This document shows positions 3,375 to 46,390 of a DNA stretch of 49,905 nucleotides, in pieces. Positions within the stretch are counted from its first letter, which is position 1; the number at the start of each line of letters is the position of its first letter. The stretch comes from Verrucomicrobiota bacterium. Lineage in GTDB: Bacteria > Verrucomicrobiota > Verrucomicrobiia > Limisphaerales > UBA9464. Below the pieces are notes generated by a model. The model ran no database searches. It saw only the letters and a program-made list of their open reading frames with translations, and was not told where the DNA came from. The position numbers and the translations under genes were made by a program. Where the stretch lies: assembly GCA_026397755.1 (NCBI GenBank), contig JAPLUF010000118.1:1-49905 (forward strand), written 5' to 3'.

Positions 3375-3447
3375 GGCAACAGACTGCTCCGAACTGCGGA
3401 TCCGGGCAATCCCGAGAGCGGTGTCGGGAAAATTTCCGGGGTGGGGC

Positions 3448-3672
3448 TTAGGGCGTGCCGCAGCGGCCGATGATGCGTCCCCGAGACAGATCAAATGGAG
3501 ACAGTTCGAGTTCCACGGTGTCGCCGGGTTGGATCGCGCCGATCACCGGTTGGAGCTTGCGGGTGACATGGGCCACCAGTTCATAGCCGTTGCTCAGGCG
3601 CATGCGATAGGCGGCGACTCCCAGCGGACTTAGGACCTGGGCCGGGACGTGGATGGCATCTTCTTTAGGCAT
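3448..3672 (-). CDS. infA: Translation initiation factor IF-1
   Basis: 74 aa. MPKEDAIHVPAQV...GDTVELELSPFDLSRGRII matches the S1-like IF-1 pattern (KEDxI, SPYDLxxGRI). Confidence 0.9.
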   Translation of the reverse strand: MPKEDAIHVPAQVLSPLGVAAYRMRLSNGYELVAHVTRKLQPVIGAIQPGDTVELELSPFDLSRGRIIGRCGTP

Positions 3673-3786
3673 GGCAGGTGGACGAGGAGAGTTTTGGCTG
3701 GAGGCTGAAGGATGAAAAGCAGGAAGGCGAAGAGGGAGTCTCTTCGCCTTCCGATGTTGGATTGCAGAAAACCGCAGTTCCGGCGA

Positions 3787-8300: not shown

Positions 8301-9921
8301 TGACAATTTCTTCGCGGATGCAGTCGATCGGAGGATTGGTGACCTGCGCGAAGAGTTGGTGGAAGTAATTGTAAAGTAGCTGCGATTGGTTGGACAACAC
8401 CGCCAAGGGCGTGTCGGTACCCATCGAGCCGATGGCTTCGACGCCGTCGCGGGCCATGGGAACTAGCAGCATTCGCAAGTCTTCAAAGGAATAACCGAAG
8501 GCCTGCTGGCGCTGCAGCACTGTGGAGTGGCCGGGCTCGGGCAGGTGCTCCTGGTCGGGCAACGAGGACAACTCGATCAAGTGCTGGTTGAGCCACTGAC
8601 GATAGGGTTGTTCGATAGCAATTTGCTCCTTGATCTCGGCGTCATCCACGATCCGGCCCTGGGCCGTATCGATGTAGAACATGCGGCCGGGTTGGAGACG
8701 GCCCTTATGGGCGATGTTCTCCGGAGCGATGTCGAGTACGCCGACCTCTGAGGCCATGATGACCTGGTCGTCTTTGGTGACGTAATAGCGCGACGGGCGC
8801 AGGCCGTTGCGGTCTAAAGATGCTCCGATGCGGACGCCGTCGGTGAAGGCCACGCAAGCTGGGCCGTCCCACGGTTCCATCAGGCATGAGTGGTACTCGT
8901 AGAACGCCTTCTTCTCGTCGCTCATCGACTCATGATTGGCCCAGGGTTCTGGGATCATCATCATCATCGCGTGCGGCAAGGAGCGGCCGGCCAGCACCAG
9001 CAATTCCAGCACGTTGTCGAACATGGCTGAATCGCTGCCGTCTGGGTCGACGATGGGCAGGATCTTGTGGATGTCGTCGCCGAAGGCATCGGATTGGAAC
9101 AGGGCCTCGCGGGCACGCATCCAATTGATGTTGCCCCGAAGCGTGTTGATCTCGCCGTTGTGAGCGATGTAACGGTACGGGTGCGAACGGGCCCAACTCG
9201 GAAACGTGTTGGTGCTGAAGCGGGAGTGGACCAGTGCCAGGCCCGACTTCATGTCCGGGTTCTTGAGGTCCAGGAAGTATTTGTCGACCTGTTCGGTCAT
9301 CAGCATTCCCTTGTACACGAGGGTGCGGCAGGAAAGGCTGCAAATGTACCAGTACCCGGCGCCGTCCTTGGTGGAGCAACGAATCTCGGAGTAAGAGCGC
9401 TTGCGGATGACGTAGAGTTTCCGTTCGAAGGCTAGGTCGTCGCTGAGTTCCGGATTCTTGCCGATGAAGACCTGTCGGACATGGGGTTCCGAAGACTTCG
9501 CAGTCTCGCCGAGCGAGCTGTTGTCAGTTGGTACGGTGCGCCAGCCCAAGAGCTCTTGGCCTTCGGACTGGATGATCTTCTCAAAGGCCATCTCCAGCTT
9601 GCGGCGCTGCCGCGGATCTCGAGGCAAGTACACCATGCCCACGCCGTACTGACCCGGGGGCGGCAGGGTGATGCCCACACGCTGGGTCTCGCTGGCCAAG
9701 AACTCGTGAGGCATCTGGATGAGGATGCCGGCGCCATCGCCCGTGTTGGCTTCGCAGCCGCACGCGCCGCGGTGGTCCAGATTCCGGAGAATTTGGAGCC
9801 CTTGTTGGACCACAGAATGAGTCTGGGTTCCCTTAATGTTGGCGACAAAACCGACGCCACACGCGTCGTGTTCGAAGTCAGGCCGGTAGAGTGAGTTCGG
9901 TACGGACGGGTACGAGTTCAT
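5332..9921 (-). CDS. gltB: Glutamate synthase large subunit
   Basis: 1529 aa. Ntn amidotransferase Cys in [17 protein letters not shown]/Fe-S central domain and C-terminal GXGXG beta-helix region ([30 protein letters not shown]). Confidence 0.95.
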
Positions 9922-10672: not shown

Positions 10673-11197
10673 ATGCAAATCACCAAAGCAGGAGAATACG
10701 GGGTTTTAGGGCTAATTGCCCTTTCTCGCCGTCCTTTGGGTGAGGTGGTCATGATTGACATCCTCTGTGAAGAAGAGTGTGTCCCGAAAAGTTTTCTGGG
10801 CAAAATTTTCCAGAATCTCAGTAAGTCGGGCTTGGTGGGTTCAGCTCGCGGATCCGGTGGGGGGTTCTACCTCACCCGCCCAGCGTCTGACATCTCCGTG
10901 CTCGAGATTTTGGAGTCCATTGAGGGACCTATCGCTCTTCAGAGATGCCTCGAAATCGATGTGGGCTGCGAACACAGTCGTGGTTGCGCACTTTGCGGCC
11001 TGTTGGCCGAGGCTCAGGAGCGGATGAAAGAGGTTTTTGTTGGCACAAGCTTGGCCACCTTGGCGGGACGCCACTTGCCCAACGGTCTGGTCCAACAGGC
11101 CCGGTTGGTCCGAAACCCCAAGATTTTTTTGACGGCTTCCGATGGTGCTATTGCCCCGCTGGCAGACGGAACCGCATTGGCCCCAACTCTGAATTAA
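10673..11197 (+). CDS. Rrf2-family (IscR-like) transcriptional regulator
   Basis: 174 aa. Rrf2 HTH region MQITKAGEYGVLGLIAL...KIFQNLSKSGLVGSARGSGGGFYL. Cys cluster CEHSRGCALC. Heads an iscU-iscS block. Confidence 0.85.
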   Translation: MQITKAGEYGVLGLIALSRRPLGEVVMIDILCEEECVPKSFLGKIFQNLSKSGLVGSARGSGGGFYLTRPASDISVLEILESIEGPIALQRCLEIDVGCEHSRGCALCGLLAEAQERMKEVFVGTSLATLAGRHLPNGLVQQARLVRNPKIFLTASDGAIAPLADGTALAPTLN

Positions 11198-17011: not shown

Positions 17012-20000
17012 ATGCGAGGGTTTTTCTCTTGGATCAGTCCATGGCTGTTGGGGGGTATCGCAGCACTGGCGTTGCAGGCCGATGAGGCTCGGTTGTTGCG
17101 GTTTCCTTCTCTGAATGGAAATCGGGTGGTGTTCACCTATGCCGGTGATCTTTATACCGTCTCGGCCTTGGGAGGGGTGGCCCGACGACTGACCTCCGAC
17201 CCGAAAGGGTTTGAAATGTTCGCCCGCTTTTCGCCCGACGGCAAAACACTGGCCTTCACCGGCCAATATGACGGAAACACCGAGGTCTATGTGATGCCTT
17301 CCGAGGGTGGCGAACCCCGGCGGCTTACCCATACCGCGACCCTGGAACGGGACGATGTCTCGGACCGGATGGGCCCCAACAACATTGTCATGGCCTGGAA
17401 GGACAATGAGACGGTGGTGTACCGTTCGCGCCGGAACCATTGGAACCCGTTCAAAGGTGAACTCACCTTGGCCCGTCTCTCGGGCGGCGTTCCGGAGACG
17501 TTGCCGGTGCCCCGCGGCGGTTGGTGCAGTTTCTCGCCGGATGGTCGGCAGATGGCCTACAATCGAGTGTTTCGTGAGTTTCGCACCTGGAAGCGCTACC
17601 GAGGCGGCCAGGCCGATGAAATCTGGTTGCACGATTTTGGGACGGGTCAGACCACCCGACTGACCACCGATCCCGCACAAGACATCTTCCCCATGTGGCA
17701 CGGAGATAAGATGTACTTCGTCTCGGAACGCGAGGAGTCCCATCAAGCCAACCTCTACGTGATGGACATGAAGACCCGGAAGCCCCGCCGACTGACCGAG
17801 TTCACGGAATTCGCCGTCAAGTTCCCCTCGATGGGTGACACGGGCATCGTCTTCGAGAATGGCGGGTATTTGTACCGCCTGGATTTCCAGACGGAGAAAG
17901 CGGTGCGGATTCCGGTGGAAATTCATGAAGACATGGCGATCGGCCGCGGTGGTTTGCGTGATGTCAGCAAGGAGATCACTACTTATGAAATTGCCCCGGA
18001 TGGTGCTCGTGGGTTGATCGGTGCACGGGGGGATGTGTTCACGGTGCCGGCCAAGAACGGGGCCGCCCGCAACCTGACGCAATCACCTGGGGTGCATGAG
18101 CGCAATGCGGTGTGGTCTCCGGACGGAAAATGGATCGGCTATGTCAGTGACCAAAGTGGCGGGGATGAGGTTTGGATCCGCCCGCAAGAGGGATCGGGTG
18201 AACCGCGGGCGCTGACCTCTGGGGCCGACACCTACAAGTACGAGATCGCCTGGTCTCCCGATTCCAAACGCATCGCCTGGACCGACAAGCTCAACCGCCT
18301 CCAATTCGTGGAGGTGGAGTCGAAGCTGGTGACTCAGGTGGCTCAATCAGACGCCTTCGAAATCCGCGATTTCGTCTGGTCTCCGGACGGCCAGTGGTTG
18401 GCGTTCACGCAACCGGAGGTGCGACGATTCGCGAACATCTACCTCTACGGGTTGGCACAGAAAAATCAGGTCCAAGTCACCGATGGGTGGTTTGATGTGG
18501 GTTCGCCGGAATTCAGCAGCGACGGCAAGTACCTGTTCTTCATCTCAGAGCGCTCCTTCAATCCCTCCTACGGCCAGACGGAGTGGAACCACACTTACAG
18601 CGACATGGAGCGGATCTACCTGGTCACATTGGCCGCCGCCACGAAGTCGCCCTTGGCGCCGAAGTCCGACGAGGTGAAACCGCGCGACGACAAGGCAGCA
18701 GTCAGCGGCACCGAGGCCAAAGCGGCTTCCGACAAAGACAAAGACAAGGACGGAGACGTGGCCAAGGCCGCCAAGCCCTCCAAGGTGGTGGTGAGCGTGG
18801 ACGTCGAGGGGTTAACTCAGCGCATCATCGTGCTGCCACCTTCGGCCTCGAATTACGGATCGCTGTCCTCGGTGGGCGACAAGCTGTTCTATGTGAAGAA
18901 GGGCAAGCTCCACCTCTTCGACCTGGAGAAGGAAAAGGAGACAGAGTTGGGCGAGGCGGCTGGGTTCCGGGTCTCGGCCGACCGCAAGAAGATGCTGGTC
19001 AAGGTGGGCTCAGATTTGGCGATTCTGGATCTTCCTTCCGCCAAGCTCGATCTCACCGATCGCAAGCTGAGCTTGAGCGACCTGAAGGTGCGTCTGGATC
19101 GCCGGGCGGAGTGGAACCAGATTTACAACGAATGCTGGCGTCAGATGCGGGATTTCCTCTTCGATCCGAAGCTGCACGGCGTGGACTGGGCGGGCATGCG
19201 CCGCCGTTATGAGCCCTTGCTGGCACATGTGCAGCATCGGGCCGACCTCACCTTCATTATCGGGGAGATGATCGGGGAGTTGAACATTGGACACGCCTAT
19301 GTGGGCGGCGGTGATTTGCCCAAGCCAGAGCGGATTCCCCTGGGGTTGCTCGGGGCGGTCATTCAGCCCGATGCCAGTGGTTATTTCCGCATCGAGCGCA
19401 TTCTCCGCGGACACAACTGGGACTCCAAGTATCGAAGTCCGCTGACGGAGATCGGTGTCGAAATCCGTCCCGGTGACTACATCCTGGCTGTTCAAGGGCA
19501 ATCTACCCGGAGCATGACGGATTTGTATTCGGCCTTGGTGGGCACGGCCGGCAAGCCCGTTGTTCTGCGGGTGAACCGGGAACCCAAAGAAGAAGGTGCT
19601 CGTGACCAGACGGTGATTCCCACGGCGGACGAACATCCGCTCTATTACCTCGATTGGGTCTTGGGGAACATCGACAAAGTGGACAAGGCCAGTGGCGGCA
19701 AGATCGGCTATGTGCATATCCCCGACATGGGGGTTCCGGGACTCAACGAGTTCGCCAAGTTCTACTACCCACAGCTCCACAAGGAAGCGCTCGTGGTGGA
19801 TTGCCGTGGCAATGGCGGCGGGAACGTCTCACCGATGATCATCGAGCGCCTGCGGCGTGAACCGGCGATGTGGACGGTGGCGCGCAACGGCGCGGTGAAC
19901 GTGGATCCCAGCGGTCAGGTGTTGGGGCCCAAGGTGCTGCTCATCGACCAGCACAGCGCCAGCGATGGCGACATCGTCGGCTATCGTTTCCGGAAGCATC

Positions 20001-20305
20001 GGCTAGGGCCAATCATCGGTCAGCGTTCGTGGGGCGGGGTGGTGGGCATCCGGGGCAGCTTACCGTTGCTGGATGGAGGCATTCTGAACCGGCCCGAGTT
20101 CAGCCGCTTCGACCTCGAAGCCAAGGAATGGATCATGGAAGGCACCGGAGTGGAGCCGGACATCGAAGTCGACAATGATCCGACCCGTGAGTTTTCGGGC
20201 ATTGACGACCAACTCAACCGCGCTATCGCCGAGCTAAAAAAAGCGATGGAAGCCAAGCCGGTGAAGATCCCGCAACCGCCGGCCTATCCTGATAAGTCGA
20301 AGTGA
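17012..20305 (+). CDS. Tricorn protease homologue (S41 peptidase with beta-propeller, PDZ and C-terminal peptidase domains)
   Basis: 1097 aa. LLRFPSLNGNRVVFTYAGDLYTV, FSPDGKTLAFTGQYDGNTEVYVM, repeated WSPDG motifs, C-terminal S41-like region IDQHSASDGDI. Confidence 0.85.
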   Translation: MRGFFSWISPWLLGGIAALALQADEARLLRFPSLNGNRVVFTYAGDLYTVSALGGVARRLTSDPKGFEMFARFSPDGKTLAFTGQYDGNTEVYVMPSEGGEPRRLTHTATLERDDVSDRMGPNNIVMAWKDNETVVYRSRRNHWNPFKGELTLARLSGGVPETLPVPRGGWCSFSPDGRQMAYNRVFREFRTWKRYRGGQADEIWLHDFGTGQTTRLTTDPAQDIFPMWHGDKMYFVSEREESHQANLYVMDMKTRKPRRLTEFTEFAVKFPSMGDTGIVFENGGYLYRLDFQTEKAVRIPVEIHEDMAIGRGGLRDVSKEITTYEIAPDGARGLIGARGDVFTVPAKNGAARNLTQSPGVHERNAVWSPDGKWIGYVSDQSGGDEVWIRPQEGSGEPRALTSGADTYKYEIAWSPDSKRIAWTDKLNRLQFVEVESKLVTQVAQSDAFEIRDFVWSPDGQWLAFTQPEVRRFANIYLYGLAQKNQVQVTDGWFDVGSPEFSSDGKYLFFISERSFNPSYGQTEWNHTYSDMERIYLVTLAAATKSPLAPKSDEVKPRDDKAAVSGTEAKAASDKDKDKDGDVAKAAKPSKVVVSVDVEGLTQRIIVLPPSASNYGSLSSVGDKLFYVKKGKLHLFDLEKEKETELGEAAGFRVSADRKKMLVKVGSDLAILDLPSAKLDLTDRKLSLSDLKVRLDRRAEWNQIYNECWRQMRDFLFDPKLHGVDWAGMRRRYEPLLAHVQHRADLTFIIGEMIGELNIGHAYVGGGDLPKPERIPLGLLGAVIQPDASGYFRIERILRGHNWDSKYRSPLTEIGVEIRPGDYILAVQGQSTRSMTDLYSALVGTAGKPVVLRVNREPKEEGARDQTVIPTADEHPLYYLDWVLGNIDKVDKASGGKIGYVHIPDMGVPGLNEFAKFYYPQLHKEALVVDCRGNGGGNVSPMIIERLRREPAMWTVARNGAVNVDPSGQVLGPKVLLIDQHSASDGDIVGYRFRKHRLGPIIGQRSWGGVVGIRGSLPLLDGGILNRPEFSRFDLEAKEWIMEGTGVEPDIEVDNDPTREFSGIDDQLNRAIAELKKAMEAKPVKIPQPPAYPDKSK

Positions 20306-20500
20306 GGGGCGGGATCTAGGGGTCACCAAAACGGCTTTGCCCCCAGTCCGGATCGGAGGCTTGTTTTCTGTGGCGGGCGGGGCAGTGGCCTATTGCCCAA
20401 GGAGCCCGCGTGCCTGAAGGCCCAGCTTCATCCTTTCGGCGCGGGGATCCCGGATTTGATGGGTTTCCCGGTGGGAGACTGAACGGGGTCCCGGAGGCGA

Positions 20501-21421
20501 TCACTTCGGGGTCGAGGCCGCCTTGCGGAGGATCCGGGAAGGGCGGTGTTCCGGGAAATCGCGGGCATATCGGTCCCGTAGTGCCTGAGTATCGGCCTTC
20601 ATGAGGTAGATGCGGCCACGGATCTGTTTAGTTTCACCGGGTTGCAGGCCTCCGAGACGGAGGTCTGAGTGCAGGCATCGGATGACGCCTTGGAAGAGTT
20701 CCTGATACGGTTCCCAGGCCGTGGCGAAAATCCATTGGCCATCGCCGCTGAAGGCACCGATCAACCCATCATCGGGCACCACTGGGCTCAAGGGCCGAGG
20801 GTTCACGTCAGTGCGGGGCACATGGAGGGGACACCAGGTTTGCCCAGGAACATACCGGGCGGCTTTGACCCACGGCTGGATTTCGGGGAAGCGCGTGACG
20901 CGGTTGCTCAAGATCAGGAAACACTGAGGCAGGTAGTCGTCGAGATTGGTGCCCTGAGCTGGAAAGCCGGTGAAACCGCCCAACCGCACGCAGGCCTGCG
21001 CCCAGTGGGCCTCGGAGCGTTTTGGCCCGGGGTTGTGGGCCACCAGGCGGAAGTTCACATCATCGGTCCCCGCCCGGATGGTGTGATCGACCACCACCCC
21101 GTCTGCCAAAGTGTCTCGGAGTTTCAGGGTCTTTCGATCGGCGCTCAGGCTAATTAACTCGGCCCGGTGCGGGATGACCGTGTGCTTCACCCAATCCGCC
21201 TCGGTGGATCCGGCCCGGCAATAGGCCTCCAGGTAGTTTACCTCGATGGATTTACCCGGCAGATGCTCCCCCTCGATGTACAGCCAATGCGGCGCCTTGA
21301 AGCGCAGCGTCAACGAGTCGGCCCGGCCCAAGGACAGCATCATCAACAGAAAGATTGAGACGCGTAGCCACCTCAAAGGGGACAGGTGGTTCGGTTGGTG
21401 GGTCGACTGAGAGGGGAACAT
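20501..21421 (-). CDS. Hypothetical secreted protein
   Basis: 306-aa ORF with a signal-like N-terminus (LRVSIFLLMMLSLGRA) and host-like composition. No motif recognised. Confidence 0.5.
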   Translation of the reverse strand: MFPSQSTHQPNHLSPLRWLRVSIFLLMMLSLGRADSLTLRFKAPHWLYIEGEHLPGKSIEVNYLEAYCRAGSTEADWVKHTVIPHRAELISLSADRKTLKLRDTLADGVVVDHTIRAGTDDVNFRLVAHNPGPKRSEAHWAQACVRLGGFTGFPAQGTNLDDYLPQCFLILSNRVTRFPEIQPWVKAARYVPGQTWCPLHVPRTDVNPRPLSPVVPDDGLIGAFSGDGQWIFATAWEPYQELFQGVIRCLHSDLRLGGLQPGETKQIRGRIYLMKADTQALRDRYARDFPEHRPSRILRKAASTPK

Positions 21422-21723
21422 CCCTGAGAGAGTTCACACCCATCGGCACAAGGCAAGTGGCGCAATGGGGCACCCAGTGGGGTTTGGTAGAGACGCAGGG
21501 GACAGGGTTCTTCGCTATTTTCAGTGGTTTTTAAACCGGCAGATTTCATTGGTTTTCACACCGTCTCTGGCAGTTGGTTTTTGCCCCCTCGGAGGCCGCC
21601 CCAGGGCCTCCTAGGTAGGGACCGATCTCCGAGCGGTCCGCCCCTGCGACAGTCCGTGTCTGCGACGGTGCTATCTCTGCGGCGGTCCGTGTCTGCGGAC
21701 GTGGCGCTTTCGGAGAAATTGCC

Positions 21724-22200
21724 CTACCTCGGAGGTGCTTGGGTGAGGTGGGGTTTCCTCGCTTCCCTTGGCATCCTTCCAACCGTAGAGGTCTTAACCG
21801 TAGAGGTCTTGAAGCACACGCATCCTGTCGCAGGCCATGCCCCAACAGACCGTTTCAGGGCCATCGCCTGCCACTTCTGGGCTTCCTTCGCCGACCTGTT
21901 CACTGGGTTCTTGCGCCACATCCAGCGAATCCCCTCCAAAAGCACCCGCCTCTTAGCGTCACCCCGGATCTCTGTCCTTCGGACTTGGCCGAACGCATCC
22001 ACCTCAGTTTGGATGACGTGAAACCTGTCTTGCATCATTCGCACGATCCTAAGGTTGACGCCCACCCCTTCGTGTAGGCCGGATCGCATGTCGATGGCCC
22101 TTTGCTGGATGGCCTTGGGATATCCGTAGCGGCCAATCAATTTCGCAGAAAAGCCTCCCCAAACACCGGCGTCCTTTTCAATGGCGCTGAAAAGAGTCAT
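21724..22200 (-). pseudogene. ISL3-family transposase fragment (central DDE region only); more degraded N-terminal remnants probably extend to about 22690
   Basis: AIDM...DRFHVIQTEVDAFGQVRRTEI...LLEGIRWMWRKNPVN matches the ISL3 core (iDm..., DrFHv, vRr.e, lkg.rwlllknp.n). The C-terminal NGpvEG region is missing. Upstream frames carry stops, and a 60-nt AT-rich block sits at 22200-22262. Confidence 0.7.
21781..21810. repeat. Perfect tandem duplication of a 15-nt unit (aaccgtagaggtctt x2)
   Basis: Read directly. It lies at the truncated 3' edge of the ISL3 fragment and appears as KTSTVKTSTV in the ORF. Confidence 0.7.
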
Positions 22201-22713
22201 CTGATTAGCTAAATCACAATCAATAAATAGTTGACTAAACTGAGGATTAGATTAATTAATCAAAAGTCCTCGATGAGAAACCACCCACATCAACGGAAGC
22301 CACGCCGAAGTACCGGTAGTCAGCCCGTGGGGTGTCTTGGTGGTCCGAGCCAGACCGAGGCAGGCATTGCCGTTCAGGTAACCCAAGCCCAATCGTCGCG
22401 CTGGACTTTTCTCAGCTCGGATGATGGCGACTTGGCGACTTGGCGAATCTGGTCGCGGGTGACCACAGGGTTCCGACCCGCGCACTCTGCTCCGGCCACT
22501 ACCTCGGCATTTCCTCCTCCTTCCGTAAGGACGTCGAGAGGTTCGCCTCAGCCGCACCTCATGACCACGCCAAGCATCCCTATCCAGAGCAACCATCCAA
22601 GCGTCTCCTCAGATTTCACCGCTTCGCATCGTCTTGTAGCCGTCAAGCCACATCTTTCCAGCTTAAAACAGCGTCGAACCTATAAAATAAAATTAATAAG
22701 CACTTAAATAAAA

Positions 22714-23469
22714 ATGAAACAAAACAACTTCAAAAAGCGAAGCGAATATTATTTAAAACATGCTTTTTCAGTAAGATTTAGCAGAGCTGCTGTTTTTGTT
22801 CTAGCGATACTTTTTCAGTGCTGCTTTATCACTATTTGTACCGCAACTAATTACGCGGCTGCAGGTCTTGTTTTAGCTGGAGCAACATTAATCAAGGATA
22901 TTTTCGGTGGGGAAACAAAGGTTGCATACCACATGATGATATTTGATAAGACGTACACAAGAAAATATTTCGGCGTGTTGGTCAGTGATAAATATTTAAT
23001 GAATGTGCTTCCTAGCCAGAAGATGGTGTACAAACAAACTTATACGCTCAAGTTCCCTGATCAAACACCAACGCTAATAATCAAAAACACTAATGCTTGG
23101 GAATTCAATCAAGGGGGGACAGAAATGGGCGATCATCAGATTGAGGTTAGAGACTTTGTTTGCAAGCACGGTGGTGACTATGGTGGAATGGATATAGATT
23201 TGAAAGTATCGTTCACAATGGGGTTTCAAACGGAAACTAGTGCATCTTCCATCTTGCCTACTAGGGCAGCTGTTACAATAAGCGGTTGGAACGAAGAACA
23301 TTCTGACTGTACTGGTTGGCCAACTTACAACGTGGGAGATAAAATTGATTGGAGCGCTCAGATTCTACCGAACGGGCAAGGTCAAGTGCATGTCACTCCC
23401 AACAAGCCTGGTTTTAAAGTGAATCGCAGCTGGGGTAGAACAGGTGCACTCAGTGTAACCGCCGGTTAA
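22714..23469 (+). CDS. Hypothetical membrane-anchored protein with a beta-rich C-terminal domain (island gene 1)
   Basis: 251-aa ORF, ATG start, basic N-terminus, hydrophobic segments AAVFVLAILFQCCFITICTA and AAGLVLAGATLI. No recognisable family motif. Confidence 0.6.
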   Translation: MKQNNFKKRSEYYLKHAFSVRFSRAAVFVLAILFQCCFITICTATNYAAAGLVLAGATLIKDIFGGETKVAYHMMIFDKTYTRKYFGVLVSDKYLMNVLPSQKMVYKQTYTLKFPDQTPTLIIKNTNAWEFNQGGTEMGDHQIEVRDFVCKHGGDYGGMDIDLKVSFTMGFQTETSASSILPTRAAVTISGWNEEHSDCTGWPTYNVGDKIDWSAQILPNGQGQVHVTPNKPGFKVNRSWGRTGALSVTAG

Positions 23470-23476
23470 AAACAAA

Positions 23477-24244
23477 GTGAAGCGTATAATTTTATTGGTG
23501 CTAACCGGTGGTGTTGTTCTATTGTTTTTAAAAATCCGGCAGCCTAATTCAAAATCATATTCATTTAGTGGTAAATTAATTGATTCTGTTCTAACCAACC
23601 GCCTAGTCAATATTGAAAAAGTTAATTCAAATCTCCGCTCGAGGCGTATCGAGACATTGGGTTTTTTGGTTGGCACCGGTCCTATGTTGATTTCGGAGGA
23701 GTATGAGTCAGGTGCTATTACAAACCTCTACCAATTCCCCTCGGGAAAATTGATTACCGAGGTCGTTCTGCCTAACCCGAAAACCCCACTCCTGGGTTCT
23801 GCTGACTATGAAATGCTAGCCGAGCAAGATTACATAAAATCAGCAGCGATGGAGACCAATCTTGTGGAAATCAAGGAAATCTTCGAAGAGTTCTCTCTTG
23901 CAAAAAAGTCTCAATACTTATACTCCGGAATTAGAGAGGCTTATGTGTTAATGGCAAAACTTTACCGTTTGGAGGATTCTGGATTGTTGATTTCAGCGGA
24001 ACAAGATATTGTCGAAAAGGAAATTTGGTCGGTTTCCGACCCGGTTGAGCGAGAACTAAAATCCAAGGAGGTTTATAACAGAGTTCACGAAGAAGCGTTG
24101 AAGATATGGTTGGAAAAGGCTGACGCTCCAAATCGATTTAAGCAACGAATGGAGCGCCTGTATGGTGAGTTTCCAAAACCGATTTTTCAACGGTTAATGT
24201 CTCTTGAAATAACAACCGAGCCGAAAGAACTGGTTAATCCGTAA
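23477..24244 (+). CDS. Hypothetical signal-anchored protein, paralogue A (island gene 2)
   Basis: 255 aa, GTG start 7 nt after the gene 1 stop. N-terminal hydrophobic segment. Shares VLPNP, TNLVEIKEIFEEF, KSQYLYSGI, LYGEFPKPIFQRL with gene 3. Confidence 0.6.
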   Translation: MKRIILLVLTGGVVLLFLKIRQPNSKSYSFSGKLIDSVLTNRLVNIEKVNSNLRSRRIETLGFLVGTGPMLISEEYESGAITNLYQFPSGKLITEVVLPNPKTPLLGSADYEMLAEQDYIKSAAMETNLVEIKEIFEEFSLAKKSQYLYSGIREAYVLMAKLYRLEDSGLLISAEQDIVEKEIWSVSDPVERELKSKEVYNRVHEEALKIWLEKADAPNRFKQRMERLYGEFPKPIFQRLMSLEITTEPKELVNP

Positions 24245-24298
24245 ATTTATTTAGGACTATTTGGTGTCGTTAACTGATTGCGATAAAGCGCAGAATTT

Positions 24299-25066
24299 AT
24301 GAATAAACGAGTTTTGATTGGTGTGTTTGTTTGTGTGCTGATTTTCTTTGCTTGTCGATGGTTTGGCTTTGAATCACCAAGCCGGCTGGACGTTCTTGAA
24401 TCCACTATCCAGACCGTGAGTCAGAGTAACACTGCTGTTGGTCTATCACGCATTGCGAAGGCTAATAGCGAATTGGTGGGTTCGGTTGGTTCCGTAGAAT
24501 CCAATCCTCCTGAGGTGGAGGGTGTAACCAATACTTATAGTTTCTCTTCAAATCATGTCGTGACGCGAATCGTTATTCCCAACCCCGAATTCAAAATATT
24601 TGGAACCCCTAAGTTTGAATCTCTGGCTAAGGCTCAGTTTGATAGCCTTACTATTAATTCAAAATACATGGTGGACACAAATCTTTATGAGCTCAAAGAG
24701 GTGTTTAAAGATTTCCCGGCAGCCATGAAGTCACAATTGCTTTATAGTGGAATCTATCAAACTGCTATTACTACATGTACACTTGGGGAAGTGCGGCAGT
24801 TTATTTTTAATACACGGTATCAGGCGATGCGAGATTTGGAGGAGGCGAATACCATTACCGACGCGGCTGAGAGAGAATCAAAAATTCAGCGAATCAAGGC
24901 TCTGTCAGATGCACAATTGGAGCTTTACAAGTCGATGCGACAAGAAACATTAGAGGATGGACGCAAAAACTTAATAAAATTGTATGGAGAACTTCCTAAG
25001 CCGATCTTTCAAAGGCTTTTGGGCATCGAACTTCGAAATGCTATGGGTCGACTTCCATACCCGTAA
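24299..25066 (+). CDS. Hypothetical signal-anchored protein, paralogue B (island gene 3)
   Basis: 255 aa. N-terminal hydrophobic segment. VIPNP, TNLYELKEVFKDF, KSQLLYSGI, LYGELPKPIFQRL are shared with gene 2. Confidence 0.6.
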   Translation: MNKRVLIGVFVCVLIFFACRWFGFESPSRLDVLESTIQTVSQSNTAVGLSRIAKANSELVGSVGSVESNPPEVEGVTNTYSFSSNHVVTRIVIPNPEFKIFGTPKFESLAKAQFDSLTINSKYMVDTNLYELKEVFKDFPAAMKSQLLYSGIYQTAITTCTLGEVRQFIFNTRYQAMRDLEEANTITDAAERESKIQRIKALSDAQLELYKSMRQETLEDGRKNLIKLYGELPKPIFQRLLGIELRNAMGRLPYP

Positions 25067-25618
25067 AATTTCAACCCGTTTGTAGTTGATTTAAGTTCGG
25101 TAATAGTTCGTTAAAATAAAGCTTTGAAGCGGGAGCCAGAACGGGGTAATTGTTAAATAGTAAACGATCGGGGGGCTGGTTCTCGCTTAATTGGTTTCTT
25201 TTCAGACCTGTGATAATTAGTAGAATGATGGTCTCAGTCGGTCCAGGGGCGTGGGTCCTGGGAACGGTAGTCAAAAACGACTGCACCAAGGTTTTTCAAG
25301 TAGTGTGGCTAGGGTCCTGTTTTTTGTCGATTTAGGAAGCTCACTCCCCATCCATCCAATTCCTCGCGGAGGGAGTTCTCGCACTCGGGCCCCACCCGAA
25401 AGTAGTTTCTTCGGATGAGTAGTCTCGATTTCGAGATGGATCGATGGGCGTTCGGTGGCTCGGAATCGGCGAAATCCACGAGTCACAGCGATCGTTCGAA
25501 TGACTGGGTCTTCGGCGATAGTCGTTGAAAAGGGATAATTGGCTCATTCCAGAGGCTTGCGTTTTCTCCACCCCGACTGCGAAACTAGTGGCATTCCATC
25601 ACCCGTTTTCATTCTCTC

Positions 25619-26983
25619 ATGAACACTGTATCCTTCGTTTCTGGTTGCCTGCTGGCAGCGATGACCTTGTCTGCGGCTGCGCCGAAGAAGGTCCTCGTGG
25701 TCACGGCCACCAAGGGCTTCCGCCACAGCTCCATCGCCACCGCCGAAAACGTCATTGCGACGCTCGGTGAAACCACCGGGGAATTCACCGTGGTGGATTA
25801 CGTGCGAGGTGGAGCCGACGGCAAGGACGACAACGAAGTCCGCGAGAAGCTTTCCATGGCCAATTTGGCCAAGGTGGACGCGGTGATCTTCGCCAACACC
25901 ACCGGTGATTTGGCGATTCCCGATCGCGAGGGCTTCATTCGCTGGGTGGAGCAGGGACACGCCCTCATCGGCATGCACTCGTGCAGCGACACGTTCCATG
26001 GGTTTCCGGCGTTTTACGGCATGTTGGGCGGGTTGTTCCTGACCCACGGCGCGCAAGTCAACGTCGACATGGCCAACCAGGATTCGTCGCACCCGGCCAA
26101 CCAGCACTTGGGCGACACGTGGTCGATGTATGACGAAATCTACGAGTTTAAGGAGTTCCACCGCGATCGCGTGCACGGGCTGTTGACACTCGATAAGCAC
26201 CCGCAGAACCACCTGCCCGGCGATTATCCCGTGGCGTGGTGCAAAGACCTCAAGGGGGGAGGCCGCATGTTCTACACCTCACTAGGCCACCGCGAAGATG
26301 TGTGGACCAGCGCCGCCTACCAGAAGCACATCCTTGGCGGCATTCGTTGGGGCCTGGGTCTGGCCAAGGGTTCCGGAGCGGTGACCGATACGGCCAATGG
26401 GCTGAGCGCGACCGAGAAGAAGGCGGGCTTCAAGCTGCTGTTCGACGGCACGTCCATGAAGGGTTGGAAGTACCGCCGCGATGACGGGATGAAGTCGTGG
26501 AGCGTTCAGAACGGCATGCTGTGCAACGTGCTCAAGGTGGACCGCGAGGGCAATTTCACCGAGCACGGCACGGACTTGCTCACCGAGGAGAAGTTCAAGG
26601 ACTTCGTCATTCGCTATGAGTACCAGGTGGCTCCGAAATCGAACTCCGGCCTCTACCTGCGCGGACGTCACGAAATCCAGATCTTGGATGATGTGAAGAC
26701 CGGCAAGGCCTCTAACGGTGGCAATGGGGCTATTTACAACCTCCAGCCGACCTCGCTCTTCGTTTCTCGCAAGGCCGGACAGTGGCAGACGGCGGAGGCC
26801 AAGATCATCGGCCAGAAGATCACCCTGACTCTCAACGGGGTGAAGGTGCATGACGGGGTGCTCAGCCCGAAGGGTACCGGGGGTCAACTCGACGATCAGG
26901 TAGACCAACCCGGGCCTATTCTGCTCCAGGGCGATCACGGTGCGGTCGCTTTCCGGAATGTTCGCATCCACACGTTGGATTGA
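25619..26983 (+). CDS. ThuA-like domain fused to a DUF1080 (3-keto-disaccharide hydrolase-like) domain, secreted
   Basis: Signal peptide. KKVLVVTATKGFRHSSI (ThuA). C-terminal GFKLLFDGTSMKGW...NSGLYLRGRHEIQILDD...LLQGDHGAVAFRNVRI (DUF1080 pattern). Confidence 0.78.
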   Translation: MNTVSFVSGCLLAAMTLSAAAPKKVLVVTATKGFRHSSIATAENVIATLGETTGEFTVVDYVRGGADGKDDNEVREKLSMANLAKVDAVIFANTTGDLAIPDREGFIRWVEQGHALIGMHSCSDTFHGFPAFYGMLGGLFLTHGAQVNVDMANQDSSHPANQHLGDTWSMYDEIYEFKEFHRDRVHGLLTLDKHPQNHLPGDYPVAWCKDLKGGGRMFYTSLGHREDVWTSAAYQKHILGGIRWGLGLAKGSGAVTDTANGLSATEKKAGFKLLFDGTSMKGWKYRRDDGMKSWSVQNGMLCNVLKVDREGNFTEHGTDLLTEEKFKDFVIRYEYQVAPKSNSGLYLRGRHEIQILDDVKTGKASNGGNGAIYNLQPTSLFVSRKAGQWQTAEAKIIGQKITLTLNGVKVHDGVLSPKGTGGQLDDQVDQPGPILLQGDHGAVAFRNVRIHTLD

Positions 26984-27129
26984 TGATGAGCCAGACAAGG
27001 TGCGGGGCAGACATTGGTTTTGCCCCGCGCCGCCGGCCTTCCGGTAACGATCGAGTGTCGGGGTGTCTGTGTGGTTGAATCAAACCGGCAGTTCCGGCGA
27101 AGATTTGTTGATATGGATCGCGGAACCCC

Positions 27130-38322: not shown

Positions 38323-39018
38323 TCATGGAAGCCGTGCGGGATGGTTCCCGCGGTAGACATCGTTGACGATGGCTTCCTTGGCTTTCCAAACGAGGGTCAT
38401 GGTCAGAGCCACGGGCAGGAGTCCTAGAGAGACCACCAAGAGCACCCGGGCTTGCTCCAAAACCTCGAGGATTTCTTGGAGGTGGTTCGGGAGAGATTGA
38501 AATTCCCGGGCCAGCGTCCATGCGGATGCGAAGGCTAACAGCGTGCTCAGCAGGGTGGTGTTGACGGTGGTGAAGAGTCGCATGTCCGAGCGGAGGGTTT
38601 CGTCTGGGAGCAAGGCGGCCAAACGACGGAGCGAATGGTTTAAGGCCAGAAGAAACCCCAGCCCTGAGAAGAGCATGAGCAGGAGGCTCGCCCCGAACAG
38701 CGCAACATCGGGGCGTCGGCTCCACCACCAAGTGAAGGGTGAAAGAGCCAGATTCAGCAGGGCCAGTAACTCGGCCCGATTCACGGATCGCACCCAGACT
38801 CGTTCTTGGGTCTGGAACTGCTCCAATTGCTTCAGCCCAAACCAGACGAGTCCGCAGGAAGCCACCGGAAGGCCGATGCCGAACTGGGACCACAATTCAC
38901 CCAGGGCGGTTCGGGTGCAGGCGAGCAAGGCCAACGGCAGTCCCCAGAAAAGGCAGGACAACCCGCGCACAACGCGGGACAGAGAGGTCAATAAGGAGTC
39001 CTGATTCACCGCGGGCAA
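38323..39018 (-). CDS. Hypothetical polytopic membrane protein
   Basis: 231-aa ORF with about 6 hydrophobic segments and host-like GC. Convergent with the operon end. No motif recognised. Confidence 0.5.
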   Translation of the reverse strand: MPAVNQDSLLTSLSRVVRGLSCLFWGLPLALLACTRTALGELWSQFGIGLPVASCGLVWFGLKQLEQFQTQERVWVRSVNRAELLALLNLALSPFTWWWSRRPDVALFGASLLLMLFSGLGFLLALNHSLRRLAALLPDETLRSDMRLFTTVNTTLLSTLLAFASAWTLAREFQSLPNHLQEILEVLEQARVLLVVSLGLLPVALTMTLVWKAKEAIVNDVYRGNHPARLP

Positions 39019-39439
39019 ACGAAACGCTGTTTGGAGGGGTCACCGCAAGGAGGAACCCGAACGGTTTAAGACAACAAAAGCAACCTGCCTAAATTCGGTT
39101 CACGCGGGAGACGAAAAATTGGGTTCACTCAGGCCGCGGGTCACACGTCTCAAACTGATTTCAAAAGCAGAGGTTAGGGATGGGTTCAGTTACCAGAAAT
39201 CGCACCCACTGCTCGATGCTCGGAGCTCTCGATCAGCATGTCTCTGGGCCGGAAGCTCAGGAGATCGAGGTGATGTGCAAATTGGTGGAGACTTTGCATC
39301 GGCGATGACGGGCACTGTCCATCTGGTGGTCGACCAACAAGATGATGCTGACGGCGTGGACGGCATGCCTGAAGAGGCGCACAAGCAGGTCCTGCAACCT
39401 GATTTGTGCTGCGAAGGGCATCGACCCAACCACTAGTAA

Positions 39440-41490
39440 TTTAAATTATTAGATGGTTTTTTAAAACAACAAAAATAACTCTATATCAGTGTTTAATCTT
39501 AAACTATTTAATTTCTATAAAAGTGCGCCCGCTGAATTCTTTTAAACAGTCACTTACAGTTCTGTTTCTGTAATCTTTTAGATCAAAATTCGCGCCTTTA
39601 TATTTCAGAAATTTTAATATCAACAAATACTGCTCTGACATTGCTGTGTTTTCTGGCTCCACCTTTATTGCGGCAACATGGGCGGGTGTGTGCCCATAAC
39701 TATCCGCCTTATTTGGATTTGCTCCAGCATCAATCAGTAGTTGAACGTCATCTAAATTTCCGATTCGTACAGCGTTAAACAAGGCTGTTCTGTTCATGAT
39801 GTCTAGTGCATCAACATCTTTAAAGTGTGGCAACAATATATAAATTGGATTGTAGTCTCTTAATGCTTTTGGTGATGCAGCGGCTAAATGCAAAGGGGTT
39901 CTTCTAAAACGATCCCTCAATTGACTAAGGTCTATCTGAGTATTAAATATTCCTGGAGTTTGCGCAATGCGGGCTTCGTTCAAAAATTCTTTACCTTGAA
40001 GTAAGGCTTCTGTTTTAAACGATTCACCTAAAACATAGAAGGCAAACAACCCTATTAAAACTGGCCTCCAGGTAAATTTTATAATATCAGTTGTGCTTAT
40101 ATGGTTGTCACTCATGTTTGAGTTTCGCGCTTTTCTTCGACCCATAAAATAATCCCCTAAAACTGTATATCGCACAAAAACATTGTAACTCCACCACATG
40201 ATATAAAAACTAACGGTGAGAATTAATCCAGATTTTGTGAGTGAATTCAAAACATTTACCTTGGCTAACATGTAAGAGAGGGTAAATGTTAACAACAGGT
40301 GGGAATAAAACATCCAGTACGAGGCATCTGAAATATATTTTATAATCAAATTTTCTTTTTTGAAATAACGTTCCGCAAGACCGATAAAGCCAAGTGAAAA
40401 CAACCAAGCTACACAAGATCGCAACAAAACTACAGACGATTTAAAAATGCCACCTTCAAGTGCTGCCTCCTTTACCCAACGAAAACCGACAACCTTATAG
40501 CTTAATAGATCATGAACGACACTGGGATAAAGATCACCCGCTAACGGAGTTAGTTGCATGCAGAAAGGGACCGTTAGCAATCCGATTCCTAAATAAATAA
40601 AGCAGTTTTTCTTTAGGTGTTCTATGTTTTCGCGCTTTACATATAAACCAATCCCAACAAAATAAAACGTCATGTAACTTGCGAGGTTGTTGATTTCAAA
40701 GTTAAAATGATTGGGCGGTAAATCAATTTCACTGAGTGAAAAATTAATTGGAAAACATAAAAAGCCTAACCAAATTGCAGACATTGGTTTTTCCGTAATT
40801 CTTCCAAGAAAATTGCAAAACGAAACCTTTATCCTTGTGGGTAAAACAAGGCGCATTATTACATGCGCTAAATACATTATAATTAAATAATAAATAAACC
40901 AATAGTGCCAGAATCCTATAAAATCAAGAACTGAGTTTTTAGAAAACCCCCCGTATAGCAGAACGCTGTTGACGCATTCTAAAATTGGTTTCTCCATCAG
41001 TATTTTTCTTACCAGTGATGGTTGACCTGCTGCTGAAATAATTAGATGGTGAATTGGCACCAAAAAAACTATTGCGAATAAGAAAGGAATTAAGATTCTT
41101 TTTTTCCTGTCTTCAATAAATTTTAAAATCCCATTTTTTTCTATAACCATTTGAGCAAAAAATCCTGCCAATAGAAAAAACAGTTGCATGCGGAACAAAT
41201 GAATGAAAGTCACAATTAATCGGTTGAATGGATCGGTTAAGTGCTCTCCCATCATCCACAGCCCTTGGTCATCCATGAAAAATATTGAAACGTGGATTAC
41301 CAATCCCAGCAACAAGGCTCCAGACCTAATAAGATCGAGGCCATAATATCTATTTGTTTTATTCATTTTGATTCATAAAATTTAAATTTGTTTTTTGATT
41401 TGGATGGTTATTTTAAACTGATGAGGCGCTTAGGGGTGATAAATCGTAACGGTCTGAAATTAACAATAATTATTAAATTAAACTCATGTT
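39440..41490. other. Second AT-rich islet (about 35-40% GC)
   Basis: Spot count of line 40261 gives 38% GC. Abrupt transitions at about 39436 and about 41490. Confidence 0.8.
39504..41366 (-). CDS. Acyltransferase family 3 (OafA/OpgC-like) membrane protein fused to C-terminal ankyrin repeats
   Basis: 620 aa. AT3 N-terminus YGLDLIRSGALLLGLVIHV and about 10-11 TMs. C-terminal RTPLHLAA..., NRTALFNAVRIGNLDDVQLLIDAGANPNKADSYGHTPAHVAA (ankyrin consensus). Confidence 0.8.
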   Translation of the reverse strand: MNKTNRYYGLDLIRSGALLLGLVIHVSIFFMDDQGLWMMGEHLTDPFNRLIVTFIHLFRMQLFFLLAGFFAQMVIEKNGILKFIEDRKKRILIPFLFAIVFLVPIHHLIISAAGQPSLVRKILMEKPILECVNSVLLYGGFSKNSVLDFIGFWHYWFIYYLIIMYLAHVIMRLVLPTRIKVSFCNFLGRITEKPMSAIWLGFLCFPINFSLSEIDLPPNHFNFEINNLASYMTFYFVGIGLYVKRENIEHLKKNCFIYLGIGLLTVPFCMQLTPLAGDLYPSVVHDLLSYKVVGFRWVKEAALEGGIFKSSVVLLRSCVAWLFSLGFIGLAERYFKKENLIIKYISDASYWMFYSHLLLTFTLSYMLAKVNVLNSLTKSGLILTVSFYIMWWSYNVFVRYTVLGDYFMGRRKARNSNMSDNHISTTDIIKFTWRPVLIGLFAFYVLGESFKTEALLQGKEFLNEARIAQTPGIFNTQIDLSQLRDRFRRTPLHLAAASPKALRDYNPIYILLPHFKDVDALDIMNRTALFNAVRIGNLDDVQLLIDAGANPNKADSYGHTPAHVAAIKVEPENTAMSEQYLLILKFLKYKGANFDLKDYRNRTVSDCLKEFSGRTFIEIK

Positions 41491-42371
41491 TGCGTGGTTT
41501 TATTCTGTATCAGTGGCATGATGTAATTTGGCGGTGAAGTTTTTGTGGGGCTATTGATTGATCGGTAAAGTAAGCGGGTCTGGTTTCCCACTCGTAGGAG
41601 GTTCGATGAGAATACCAGTCTGGTGGTAGAGGAATGGGGATTTGTTCGGAAATGGTCTACGACGCGATTGCAGCGCTGGATGTCATGATGGATGCTCTCG
41701 CACATGTTGGAGGTGCGCAGGCGGGGGCGGACGTGCTCGGGCTGTTTATAGGCGGCGAGTTTTGGGACGTAAGCTTGGGCGCTGTGCTGAAGATGAAACT
41801 GGTAGCGTTGCCAGGGGCTAGCACAGAGGGCGGTGCTCGATGCGGCTTTGAGACTGTCTTGAGCGTTGGAAGTGACGTTGTCGGGGATGCCGATGCCGCG
41901 CCGTTGGAAAAAGCAGATAAAGTCGCAATGGGGTTCAGCTTCGGAGAGGGCGCAGGTGACACCGAGAACTCTGCGCTGGGCATCGTCGCGGGGGGCTCTG
42001 ATGGCGGCGAGGGCAGCGCCCGTGTACAAAACCGTTGGGTTCGACCTTGATGTAAGTGGCGTCGAGGATGAGGTGAGGGATTTCGGGCAGCGGACGGGTG
42101 CGCTAGAGGTTAGATTCGGGCTCCAGCTCTGCAGTGAGGCGGGAGACTGAGGTGTAGGAGGTCTCCAAGCCGCAAGGTTCTTCGAGGACCTTGGAAACGC
42201 GGGGAGTGGAGATGTTCTGAAGATGAGACGATGGGAGCTTAGAACTTCCAGGTGGTTCGCCGTCGCCCTCTGTAAGTCTCGGCGATGGAGAGGCTGGAAA
42301 ATTGGTGGAGGCTGCGGGGCGATCGGTCGCAGCGCGAAGGTAGCCTCTTGAGGCTTAGAGTCTGGGTTCAC
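41484..42371 (-). pseudogene. IS256-family (mutator-type) transposase remnant: 5'-truncated, with an in-frame TAG and at least two frameshifts
   Basis: WQRYQFHLQHS (QRCxVH motif), LRTSNMCESIHHDIQRCNRVVDHF (TTNxIESxNxxIKRRtrVv). In shifted frames: NISTPRVSKVLEEPCGLETSYTSVSRL and L-TAG-RTRPLPEIPHLILDATYIKV. Confidence 0.72.
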
Positions 42372-42500
42372 GCATTTAGATGCGTCAACCGGACGTGGAA
42401 CGGATCAATTATTTTGCGAAAGACGCTAAAAAATTAAGCGGCCCCAAATTTGTCAGCGATTGAGAGGGAGCTTTTGAGGCAAAAATACTGAGAGAAAAAT

Positions 42501-42534
42501 AAAAAAGACCGGCGGGTTAGGCCGGTCTTTTTTT
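42501..42534 (-). terminator. Intrinsic (bidirectional-looking) terminator downstream of tRNA-Gly
   Basis: 8-bp stem agaccggc / gccggtct with a 7-nt loop, flanked by an A-run and a T-run. Confidence 0.7.
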
Positions 42535-42543
42535 CTGGAAAGC

Positions 42544-42620
42544 TGGAGCGAGTGAAGGGATTCGAACCCTCGACATTCACCTTGGCAAGGTGACGCTCTA
42601 CCAGACTGAGCTACACTCGC
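42544..42620 (-). tRNA. tRNA-Gly (anticodon GCC), CCA encoded
   Basis: Reverse complement is GCGAGTGTAGCTCAGTCTGGTAGAGCGTCACCTTGCCAAGGTGAATGTCGAGGGTTCGAATCCCTTCACTCGCTCCA. It has a 7-bp acceptor stem, D-loop AGTCTGGTA, anticodon loop TTGCCAA and T-loop TTCGAAT. Confidence 0.93.
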
Positions 42621-46308: not shown

Positions 46309-46390
46309 CGGGAATGTCCTCAGGCTACCGGCTCCCCTTGCGGTGGCGAACCCAGAGATGGTTTTTTGAGCGGTTTCTTGGAGCGCGTCG

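Follow-up and report, generated by a model that had tools for sequence, protein, structure and literature searches.

A conserved leader with an octanucleotide repeat precedes an AT-rich three-gene cassette in freshwater Verrucomicrobiota: a candidate module for envelope diversification

An AT-rich three-gene cassette and its distribution

The DNA under study, hereafter the window, is a stretch of 49,905 nucleotides (nt; positions 1 to 49,905 of contig JAPLUF010000118.1, assembly GCA_026397755.1) from a bacterium of the Verrucomicrobiota, in which three same-strand genes (g1, g2 and g3; 22714-25066) form an AT-rich cassette. A GC-rich leader of about 480 nt (22231-22679) is positioned between g1 and the remnant of an ISL3 transposase, and this promoter-leader, common to many loci and equipped with an octanucleotide repeat, tells more about the locus than any other feature. 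It had been overlooked when a model annotated the window from its letters alone (the sequence-only reading); the ISL3 remnant does not abut the AT-rich block, as was stated there, since the conserved leader intervenes. The features of the locus are as follows.

22231-22236, plus strand: TTGACT, −35-like box that opens the leader; TTGAC/TTGAT is near-invariant across 47 unique leaders
22265-22425, plus strand: leader core (about 160 nt), which includes a near-invariant ATG (22273); 45 distinct copies were aligned
22273-22707, plus strand: predicted upstream open reading frame (ORF) of 144 codons; it opens with the near-invariant ATG and closes with a TAA, 6 nt short of the g1 start
22424-22448, plus strand: octanucleotide tract, about three units of (GGCGACTT) or variants; length-variable among loci
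22450-22679, plus strand: C-rich, G-poor 3' half of the leader, about 230 nt (C 0.38, G 0.23; GC skew −0.28)
22669-22679, plus strand: CAGCGTCGAAC, 3' end of the leader (consensus CAGCG(A/T)(G/C)GAAC) and junction to the AT-rich cargo
22714-23469, plus strand: g1, 251 amino acids (aa); exported or anchored, predicted to be beta-rich, with a conserved cysteine pair (C150, C199); fastest-evolving and mosaic
23477-24244, plus strand: g2, 255 aa, GTG start; N-terminal membrane anchor, four-stranded sheet and helical bundle in an AlphaFold2 (AF2) model
24299-25066, plus strand: g3, a 255-aa paralogue of g2 (30% identity, E 2e-28)
25129-25142, plus strand: GCGGGAGCCAGAAC, tentative right-end motif of the AT-rich block, resembling the GGGG.CAG(G)GAAC present at the right ends of some other cargos
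21724-22200, minus strand: decayed ISL3 transposase fragment (Pfam DDE_Tnp_ISL3, E 3.2e-10; profile positions 52-138 of 240), a neighbour and no working part of the locus

Measured in 300-nt intervals, the GC content amounts to 0.37-0.45 at 22600-25300 and to 0.58-0.64 in both flanks; the coding span (22714-25066) has a value of 0.415, the remainder of the window one of 0.587. The left edge of the AT-rich block is sharp (about 22680), while on the right side the GC content climbs back gradually (about 25140-25450). The sequence-only reading was therefore correct in reporting an abrupt drop in GC content, but the level reached is about 40% and not the claimed 30-40%. The coordinates it gave for the three ORFs, with gaps of 7 and 54 nt, are exact, and its description of g2 and g3 as 255-aa paralogues with an N-terminal hydrophobic segment holds as well. 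An assembly chimera, which it had named as a possible source of error, is excluded by identical junctions in independent NCBI, JGI, ENA and Logan assemblies. Between the AT-rich block and the ThuA gene lie about 480 nt of intermediate GC content (25143-25618) with no convincing ORF and no Rfam match, of which the last 180 nt or so alone are conserved in loci L001-L004 (about 88-91%).

The order of the trio is retained in about 30 loci of freshwater Verrucomicrobiota. In every locus with enough sequence the arrangement g1-g2-g3 is fixed, and it occurs in at least four genomic contexts and in several subtypes. The neighbours in the window are housekeeping genes (Tricorn protease, Mla, ThuA, ABC transporter), and the syntenic locus between the Tricorn protease and ThuA genes also carries the trio in L001, L004, L005, L014, and L017. 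Elsewhere, the trio stands beside FG-GAP/ASPIC genes (L006-L008, L018) or SASA/DUF1559-type genes (L012), adjoins an S4-domain gene and an RHH-PIN pair (L009-L011), or is found inside a duplicated rarA region (L022). In the latter locus, what looks to us by eye like rarA (replication-associated recombination protein A) is duplicated along with the DNA that follows it (2103-4160 and 7477-8434), and the two copies bracket a cassette of the divergent subtype B; the second copy has an internal deletion, and the duplication looks like either a single-crossover integration or an assembly artefact. Metagenome-assembled genomes (MAGs) contain one to three cassettes, three being present in one MAG (L018, L022, L023). 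As far as can be judged from these comparisons, the trio is a genuine conserved operon confined to freshwater Verrucomicrobia, and its fixed order across several contexts bears out the earlier description of an orphan accessory three-gene unit.

The trio is not always the whole cassette. A second g2'-g3' pair follows it in L005 (9933-11346), L027, L053, and L074, with g2' being 51-60% and g3' 82-83% identical to the window copies; a run of N separates the pair copies in L005, and the layout is confirmed by three other contigs. In the type B loci L023 (4958-5644), L029, L036, and L066, an unrelated 228-aa signal-anchored protein occupies the g1 slot in front of g2-g3, while L075 carries a true type B g1 before a g2 that is 98% identical in DNA. 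The extra pairs suggest that g2 and g3 are duplicated together and function jointly.

No recognisable family had been seen in any of the three proteins by the sequence-only reading, and this is confirmed: searches of Pfam, NCBIfam, PADLOC and PHROGs gave no match for g1-g3 (0 PADLOC families for each of them at E <= 1), and profiles of the g1 and g2/g3 families retrieved nothing from the PDB sequences. Homologous protein clusters number 27 for g1, 56 for g3 (close homologues) and 130 for a combined g2+g3 profile, and all of these homologues originate from metagenomes or MAGs labelled Verrucomicrobia/Verrucomicrobiota (one Verrucomicrobium sp., one Akkermansia muciniphila). An exhaustive HMMER search of 1.84 billion representative proteins with the g1 profile returned 10 hits, mostly family members or fragments; two are weak hits to repeat proteins (Ig-like; Listeria-Bacteroides repeat), and the weak Ig-like matches are only a hint at a beta-sandwich for g1.

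N-terminal hydrophobic segments are present on g1, g2 and g3, and on this evidence all three products are predicted to be targeted to the envelope, outside the cytoplasm. In g1, a long positively charged N-terminus and the hydrophobic stretch precede a conserved core of about 185 aa that contains the invariant run HxIEVRDxVC and two invariant cysteines. The sequence-only reading had recognised the hydrophobic segment of g1, whereas the beta-rich character that it ascribed to this protein rests on a low-confidence AF2 model (predicted local distance difference test, pLDDT, 49.5; unreliable). Structure prediction and fold searching, both recommended there, were uninformative for g1, and Foldseek matches of its model were discarded as meaningless because the model is too poor. 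The g2 model, built from 40 diverse family members, is confident (pLDDT 82.9; predicted template-modelling score, pTM, 0.72) and shows a four-stranded sheet and a helical bundle besides an N-terminal helix and a disordered linker; it has no significant structural neighbour in PDB (best E 0.05, TM about 0.2) or BFVD.

The pairwise ratios of nonsynonymous to synonymous divergence (dN/dS) are 0.41 for g1, 0.23 for g2, and 0.24 for g3; together with the homologous clusters, these values argue that the genes are real and not chance ORFs. They exceed those of the adjacent housekeeping genes 4-8-fold. The fastest-evolving member is g1, while g2 and g3 are more conserved and always paired. The histories of the three genes are incongruent: between the window and L006, the synonymous divergence (dS) is 0.79 for g1, 0.33 for g2 and 0.11 for g3. 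When g1 is divided into residues 1-64, 65-168, and 169-251, protein P0004 is 92, 89, and 63% identical to the window copy in these segments, and P0009 is 45, 73, and 86% identical; by this comparison, g1 is a mosaic. The identity of g2 to the window copy is 0.81-0.91 with either type of g1 C-terminus, a range drawn from few independent lineages.

These data bear on two other ways to understand the trio. It might represent a lineage-specific housekeeping envelope complex (a scaffold or assembly factor), whose AT-richness and leader would serve regulation and whose differences would be neutral. Purifying selection on g1-g3 and a Tricorn-ThuA synteny that stays stable across several species agree with this idea, but the 4-8-fold elevated dN/dS, the recombination and mosaicism of g1, the variable copy number with its extra g2-g3 pairs, and the restriction of the family to a narrow clade do not, nor does the finding, described below, that the platform also occurs empty or with other cargos. 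We consider such a complex unlikely. The sequence-only reading had instead suggested an effector/immunity module, in other words a polymorphic toxin system in which g1 would be the exported toxin and g2/g3 duplicated immunity proteins. All three products being envelope-targeted, g1 being the most divergent and mosaic member, and the extra g2'-g3' pairs, which recall orphan immunity arrays, would suit this proposal. We nevertheless judge it improbable, since Pfam and NCBIfam reveal no domain of a toxin, of a trafficking system (Rhs, PAAR, LXG, CdiA) or of an immunity protein, no secretion-system genes are found within ±8 kb, and the evolution of g2 and g3 is slower than that of g1; in the few independent lineages compared, they also form no classes tracking its two C-terminal types. 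Moreover, the g1 slot of L023 is filled by an unrelated protein before the same g2-g3 pair, and many unrelated modules without this layout are situated behind the same leader.

The sequence-only reading also held that the cassette had been acquired with the ISL3 element. DNA of the ISL3 remnant is common to the window, L001, L004, L017, L018, and L006; it is absent from L005 and L014, which possess the cassette in the same Tricorn-ThuA synteny, so that the remnant is a secondary neighbour. The fragment is truncated at both ends and has no flanking inverted repeats; a cargo of an ISL3 transposon would hardly be expected next to a partial transposase, with no bracketing inverted repeats, and in loci lacking the fragment altogether. 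The divergence data concur: in comparisons involving the window itself, the dS of the cassette approximates that of the flanks; between L001 and L005 it is higher (0.25-0.52 versus 0.16-0.17, about 1.5-3-fold), and species with flank dS values of 0.3-0.9 still harbour the cassette at this locus. We conclude that the AT-rich state is old and maintained, and not the mark of a recent import. A foreign islet recently brought in by ISL3 and without host-specific role would account for the low GC content at third codon positions (GC3; about 0.40 in the trio versus 0.75-0.80 in flanking genes), for the adjoining ISL3 fragment, and for the company of a second AT-rich islet in the window beside an IS256 remnant and a tRNA gene. 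Persistence of the trio under purifying selection in diverged species, its presence in L005 and L014 without ISL3, the state of the ISL3 fragment, and an exhaustive protein search that shows no low-GC donor lineage largely refute this explanation, which we regard as very improbable.

The second islet (39000-42620; GC 0.36-0.45) shares no sequence with the leader. It contains, on the minus strand, a gene for a membrane protein with Acyl_transf_3 and ankyrin-repeat regions (39504-41366), preceded by a decayed IS256/Mutator transposase (41484-42371; Pfam E 3.6e-5), and a tRNA-Gly gene (42544-42620). A C-rich "leader" considered in front of the AT-rich gene of this islet is actually the IS256/Mutator remnant. 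Adjoining the tRNA-Gly islet, a 1316-aa secreted protein is encoded at 42700-46650 (CotH kinase, lamin-tail, Fn3-associated and CHB_HEX_C_1 domains). On the left side of the ISL3 fragment, 21644-21697 contains a direct repeat of 21 nt (CTGCGACAGTCCGTGTCTGCG) with a spacing of 33 nt, and a PreQ1-III match at 21565-21648 is at chance level (E 0.95; 20.9 bits versus a gathering score of 63 bits).

The leader and its interchangeable cargos

The DNA of the leader is conserved in all type A loci, and in type B loci it is still 67-70% identical, despite the type B proteins being only 30-45% identical to those of the window. A consensus promoter scan did not call the TTGACT box at its start because the −10 sequence is weak, and no terminator-like sites were found on the plus strand from the leader through g3. 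Several identities of this DNA were considered and rejected. A structured RNA is not supported: the RNAalifold consensus of 45 copies is weak (−7.3 kcal/mol) and contains no compensatory pairs, covariation seen by eye was not confirmed, and folding revealed no excess stability (minimum free energy z-scores of −0.5 and −0.2; −0.2 for the C-rich half). An Rfam 15 search over 20000-27000 (E <= 1) gave two chance-level hits only, both outside the leader. As a coding region or decayed gene, the leader is a poor candidate, with the tested ORFs lacking a Pfam match, codon periodicity being weak, and the reading frame downstream of the repeat varying among loci; the suggestion that it represents the missing N-terminus of the ISL3 transposase was rejected.

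A scan of metagenomes recovered 50 loci with the leader, behind which at least 15 cargo architectures are found, all AT-rich (GC 0.36-0.51) within GC-rich surroundings and 0.9-4.9 kb in size. They comprise several subtypes of the trio, the 228-aa gene with type B g2-g3, one empty platform, and at least 12 other gene sets. The latter include multi-gene cargos (178+348, 195+369, 231+357, 200+410, 174+447, 201+187, 270+362+607, 540+440, and 647+430 aa) and single genes (224, 229, 256, 367, and 397/412 aa). Most cargo ORFs encode an N-terminus resembling a signal peptide or an anchor; a C-terminal anchor is frequent among second genes, and several first genes code for cysteine-rich proteins. Ten of the other cargos were scanned and gave no Pfam match, and hidden Markov models of g1 and g2/g3 detected no similarity to the other leader-linked cargos.

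Leader cores that are at least 95% identical can be followed by unrelated cargo, and the upstream flanks are 90-96% identical where comparable. Four such pairs, which differ in cargo, lose their homology no more than 4 nt from the 3' end of the leader (...GAGGAAC). The left flanks of L032 and L023 match at 81% identity over 5 kb, and beyond the common leader the two loci have different cargo. In comparison with L042, the platform of L049 is empty (leader core at 542-648, junction at about 916-920): its leader end, ...GCGAGGAAC, is directly joined to a DUF1559-type gene, which in L042 is preceded by a 1.85-kb AT-rich cargo (a 397-aa gene) with GGAAC at both ends. The DUF1559-type label in these two loci reflects what we take, by eye, to be a prepilin-like N-terminus. 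As read from these alignments, cargo is replaced at a fixed left junction.

A conserved recombination motif at the right ends (GGGGTCAG(G)GAAC-like) was considered and dismissed, as it belongs to a multi-copy element resembling repetitive extragenic palindromic (REP) sequences. This REP-like element, (AAAGGGGTCAGT)n followed by TTCTTGATATTGGCTACTCC, was found in L023 (7467-7540, 8601, 9693, 11021-11090), L032 (9250), L036 (1877-1925), and L041 (5939); by eye, a recurrent gene remnant has its 3' end next to the element and a C-terminus like that of a RAYT-type transposase, and ORFs that by eye resemble PIN domains are located nearby in L023. On the other side, a gene for a 527-aa membrane protein (L023 2805-4388), or its decayed 3' end, precedes many leaders (L019, L041, L056, L058, L063, L075). 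This protein has a sub-threshold match to PMT_2 (GT-C glycosyltransferase; E 0.004), and the AT-rich cargo of L071 includes a polytopic membrane protein; both may point to a link with envelope glycosylation. Neither full-text searches of the literature nor the Rfam and Pfam searches yielded a description of a leader-linked family of exchangeable AT-rich cassettes.

The octanucleotide repeat and a possible switch

The octanucleotide tract measures 0-106 nt across loci, and copies whose flanks are at least 97% identical differ in it by 8, 16 or 32 nt. Such whole-unit differences in length are, at the level of sequence, the signature of slipped-strand events. The predicted upstream ORF spans the tract. 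In about 34 of the 47 leaders it runs through the C-rich region and ends less than 100 nt from the first cargo gene, often 6-28 nt from its start or overlapping it; in about a dozen leaders its stop codon is located 240-450 nt earlier. L014 (7 units, 73 codons) and L015 (8 units, 135 codons) are otherwise near-identical, which shows for the predicted ORF that the number of units alters its frame and length.

These observations can be combined into a mechanism in which slippage in the 8-nt repeat would shift the frame of the upstream ORF. In the ON state, the ORF would be translated across the C-rich tract, which resembles a Rho-loading site, to within a few nt of the first cargo gene, so that ribosomes would cover the tract and be delivered to g1; the leader of the window, with its stop 6 nt before g1, would correspond to an ON-like state. 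In the OFF state, translation would stop early and leave the C-rich tract bare. Translation of the upstream ORF, the involvement of Rho, and ON/OFF switching itself are what we infer from the leader sequences. To our knowledge, a frame-shifting repeat in an upstream ORF before a C-rich tract has not been described as a mechanism of phase variation.

We thus tentatively favour, with a confidence slightly short of even, the view that the trio is one cargo type of a modular locus family and that this family constitutes a replaceable, strain-variable and probably switchable envelope or surface module. A GC-rich promoter-leader platform of about 480 nt would be followed at a precise junction by interchangeable AT-rich modules that differ between strains. 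In the trio, g1 would be the exported beta-rich protein that carries the variation, while g2 and g3 would be a paralogous pair anchored in the inner membrane that probably holds, assembles or presents g1. The likely role would be diversification of the envelope or surface, for instance against phages or grazers, or in attachment.

A number of points weigh against this view. The coding signal of the upstream ORF is weak: diversity at the three codon positions is 0.25/0.25/0.34 (p about 0.03), the synonymous fraction is 0.29 against an expected 0.24, and there is no clear Shine-Dalgarno sequence. Its ATG or frame has been lost in a few lineages (L042, L065, L041/L068), and several lineages are without any repeat. 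Compared with composition-matched shuffles, the C-rich tract is only modestly richer in stop-free frames (1.16 versus 0.83), so that long upstream ORFs are in part a by-product of composition. Given its poor model, g1 is putatively surface-exposed at most, and the function we propose for the trio is deduced from context. The scan of metagenomes employed a degenerate pattern derived from known leader copies, and the diversity recovered is biased accordingly. No right junction could be delimited for the cargos, similarity there being confounded by the REP-like repeat. For the locus of the window itself, exact look-ups of both flanking proteins disclosed no alternative cargo or empty state.

A role in the interplay with phages could also be fulfilled by a small anti-phage system of the envelope, acting through abortive infection or through receptor masking by dedicated proteins, and the sequence-only reading had raised such a defence module. 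The cassette is indeed accessory, AT-rich and strain-variable, it has a transposase remnant nearby, and one type B copy adjoins an RHH-PIN toxin-antitoxin pair. Yet no PADLOC match and no nuclease, ATPase or other effector domain is present, the neighbours are housekeeping genes and not defence islands, and no relatives of the cassette were found on IMG/VR viral contigs; moreover, variation of receptors is already covered by surface diversification without a dedicated defence machine. Such a system seems to us a shade less probable still than the toxin/immunity arrangement. The empty IMG/VR and PHROGs searches speak against a phage origin of the cassette.

A more explicit version of the modular view would be a cassette-exchange system, in which the leader serves as an expression site with the 3' junction ...GAGGAAC, orphan AT-rich envelope modules are swapped behind it between strains by recombination, and the octanucleotide repeat toggles the frame of the upstream ORF over the Rho-loading-like tract. 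Such a system would unite the modularity of integrons with the switching of contingency loci. In this full form we hold it to be possible but rather unlikely.

If the favoured view of a replaceable surface module is true, abundant free-living lake bacteria would diversify their surface through a compact design of platform plus exchangeable cassette, with a repeat-driven switch of a kind so far linked mainly to host-adapted pathogens. It would provide a context for more than 20 orphan protein families, for which neither relatives nor a match among solved structures are known. The leader offers a defined DNA motif by which such loci can be located in metagenomes. It can now be tested whether uncultured aquatic bacteria vary phage- or grazer-exposed surfaces in this way, and why AT-rich genes stay unameliorated in GC-rich genomes.

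Comparison with known systems

Simple-sequence-repeat contingency loci are the closest precedent for the repeat; examples are hmw1A/hmw2A of non-typeable Haemophilus influenzae, which have 7-bp repeats upstream, and the opa genes of Neisseria with their CTCTT repeats. Here, too, envelope-protein genes contain a short tandem repeat or are preceded by one, near-identical copies differ in length by whole units, the number of repeats alters a reading frame (that of the predicted upstream ORF), and the downstream proteins are fast-evolving and recombining. In contingency loci, however, the repeat resides in the structural gene or in the promoter spacer, whereas the 8-nt unit described here is positioned about 270 nt upstream of the first structural gene, in the leader and its upstream ORF. 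Contingency loci are, moreover, associated mainly with host-adapted pathogens, while the bacteria considered here are free-living freshwater Verrucomicrobiota in which switching is putative.

Replacement flexible genomic islands ("metagenomic islands") encode exposed surface structures in aquatic bacteria. Like these, the present loci combine the same flank or platform with unrelated cargo in close relatives, and their cargo is envelope-targeted and of atypical composition. Unlike them, the units are small (0.9-4.9 kb), encode orphan proteins in place of glycosyltransferase or O-antigen clusters, and all start at one precise junction behind a common leader.

A promoter-bearing platform that receives, at a fixed junction, unrelated cargo lacking the platform promoter, and that also exists in an empty state, is reminiscent of an integron. 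In contrast to integrons, the genes that Pfam annotates within ±6-8 kb of eight loci include no integrase (many of these contigs being short), and no attC-like inverted repeats were found in the window, the shared right ends being a REP-like direct repeat. The junction GAGGAAC does not fit the GTTRRRY core either, and the cargo is multi-gene and AT-rich.

With regard to expression, the E. coli tna operon is governed by a leader-peptide/Rho attenuator that depends on ligand-induced stalling of ribosomes. The likeness is an analogy of mechanism only: the structural genes are preceded by an upstream ORF and then by a C-rich, G-poor tract, translated or untranslated, but the control proposed here would be exerted by a frame-shifting repeat and not by ligand-induced stalling.

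With polymorphic toxin-immunity cassettes the trio shares a small exported protein followed by small, sometimes duplicated partner genes, and it differs from them in having no toxin or immunity domain and in partners that are more conserved than the putative effector. Collectively, the locus family combines features of contingency loci, of replacement islands, and of integron-like platforms, without the features that define an integron.

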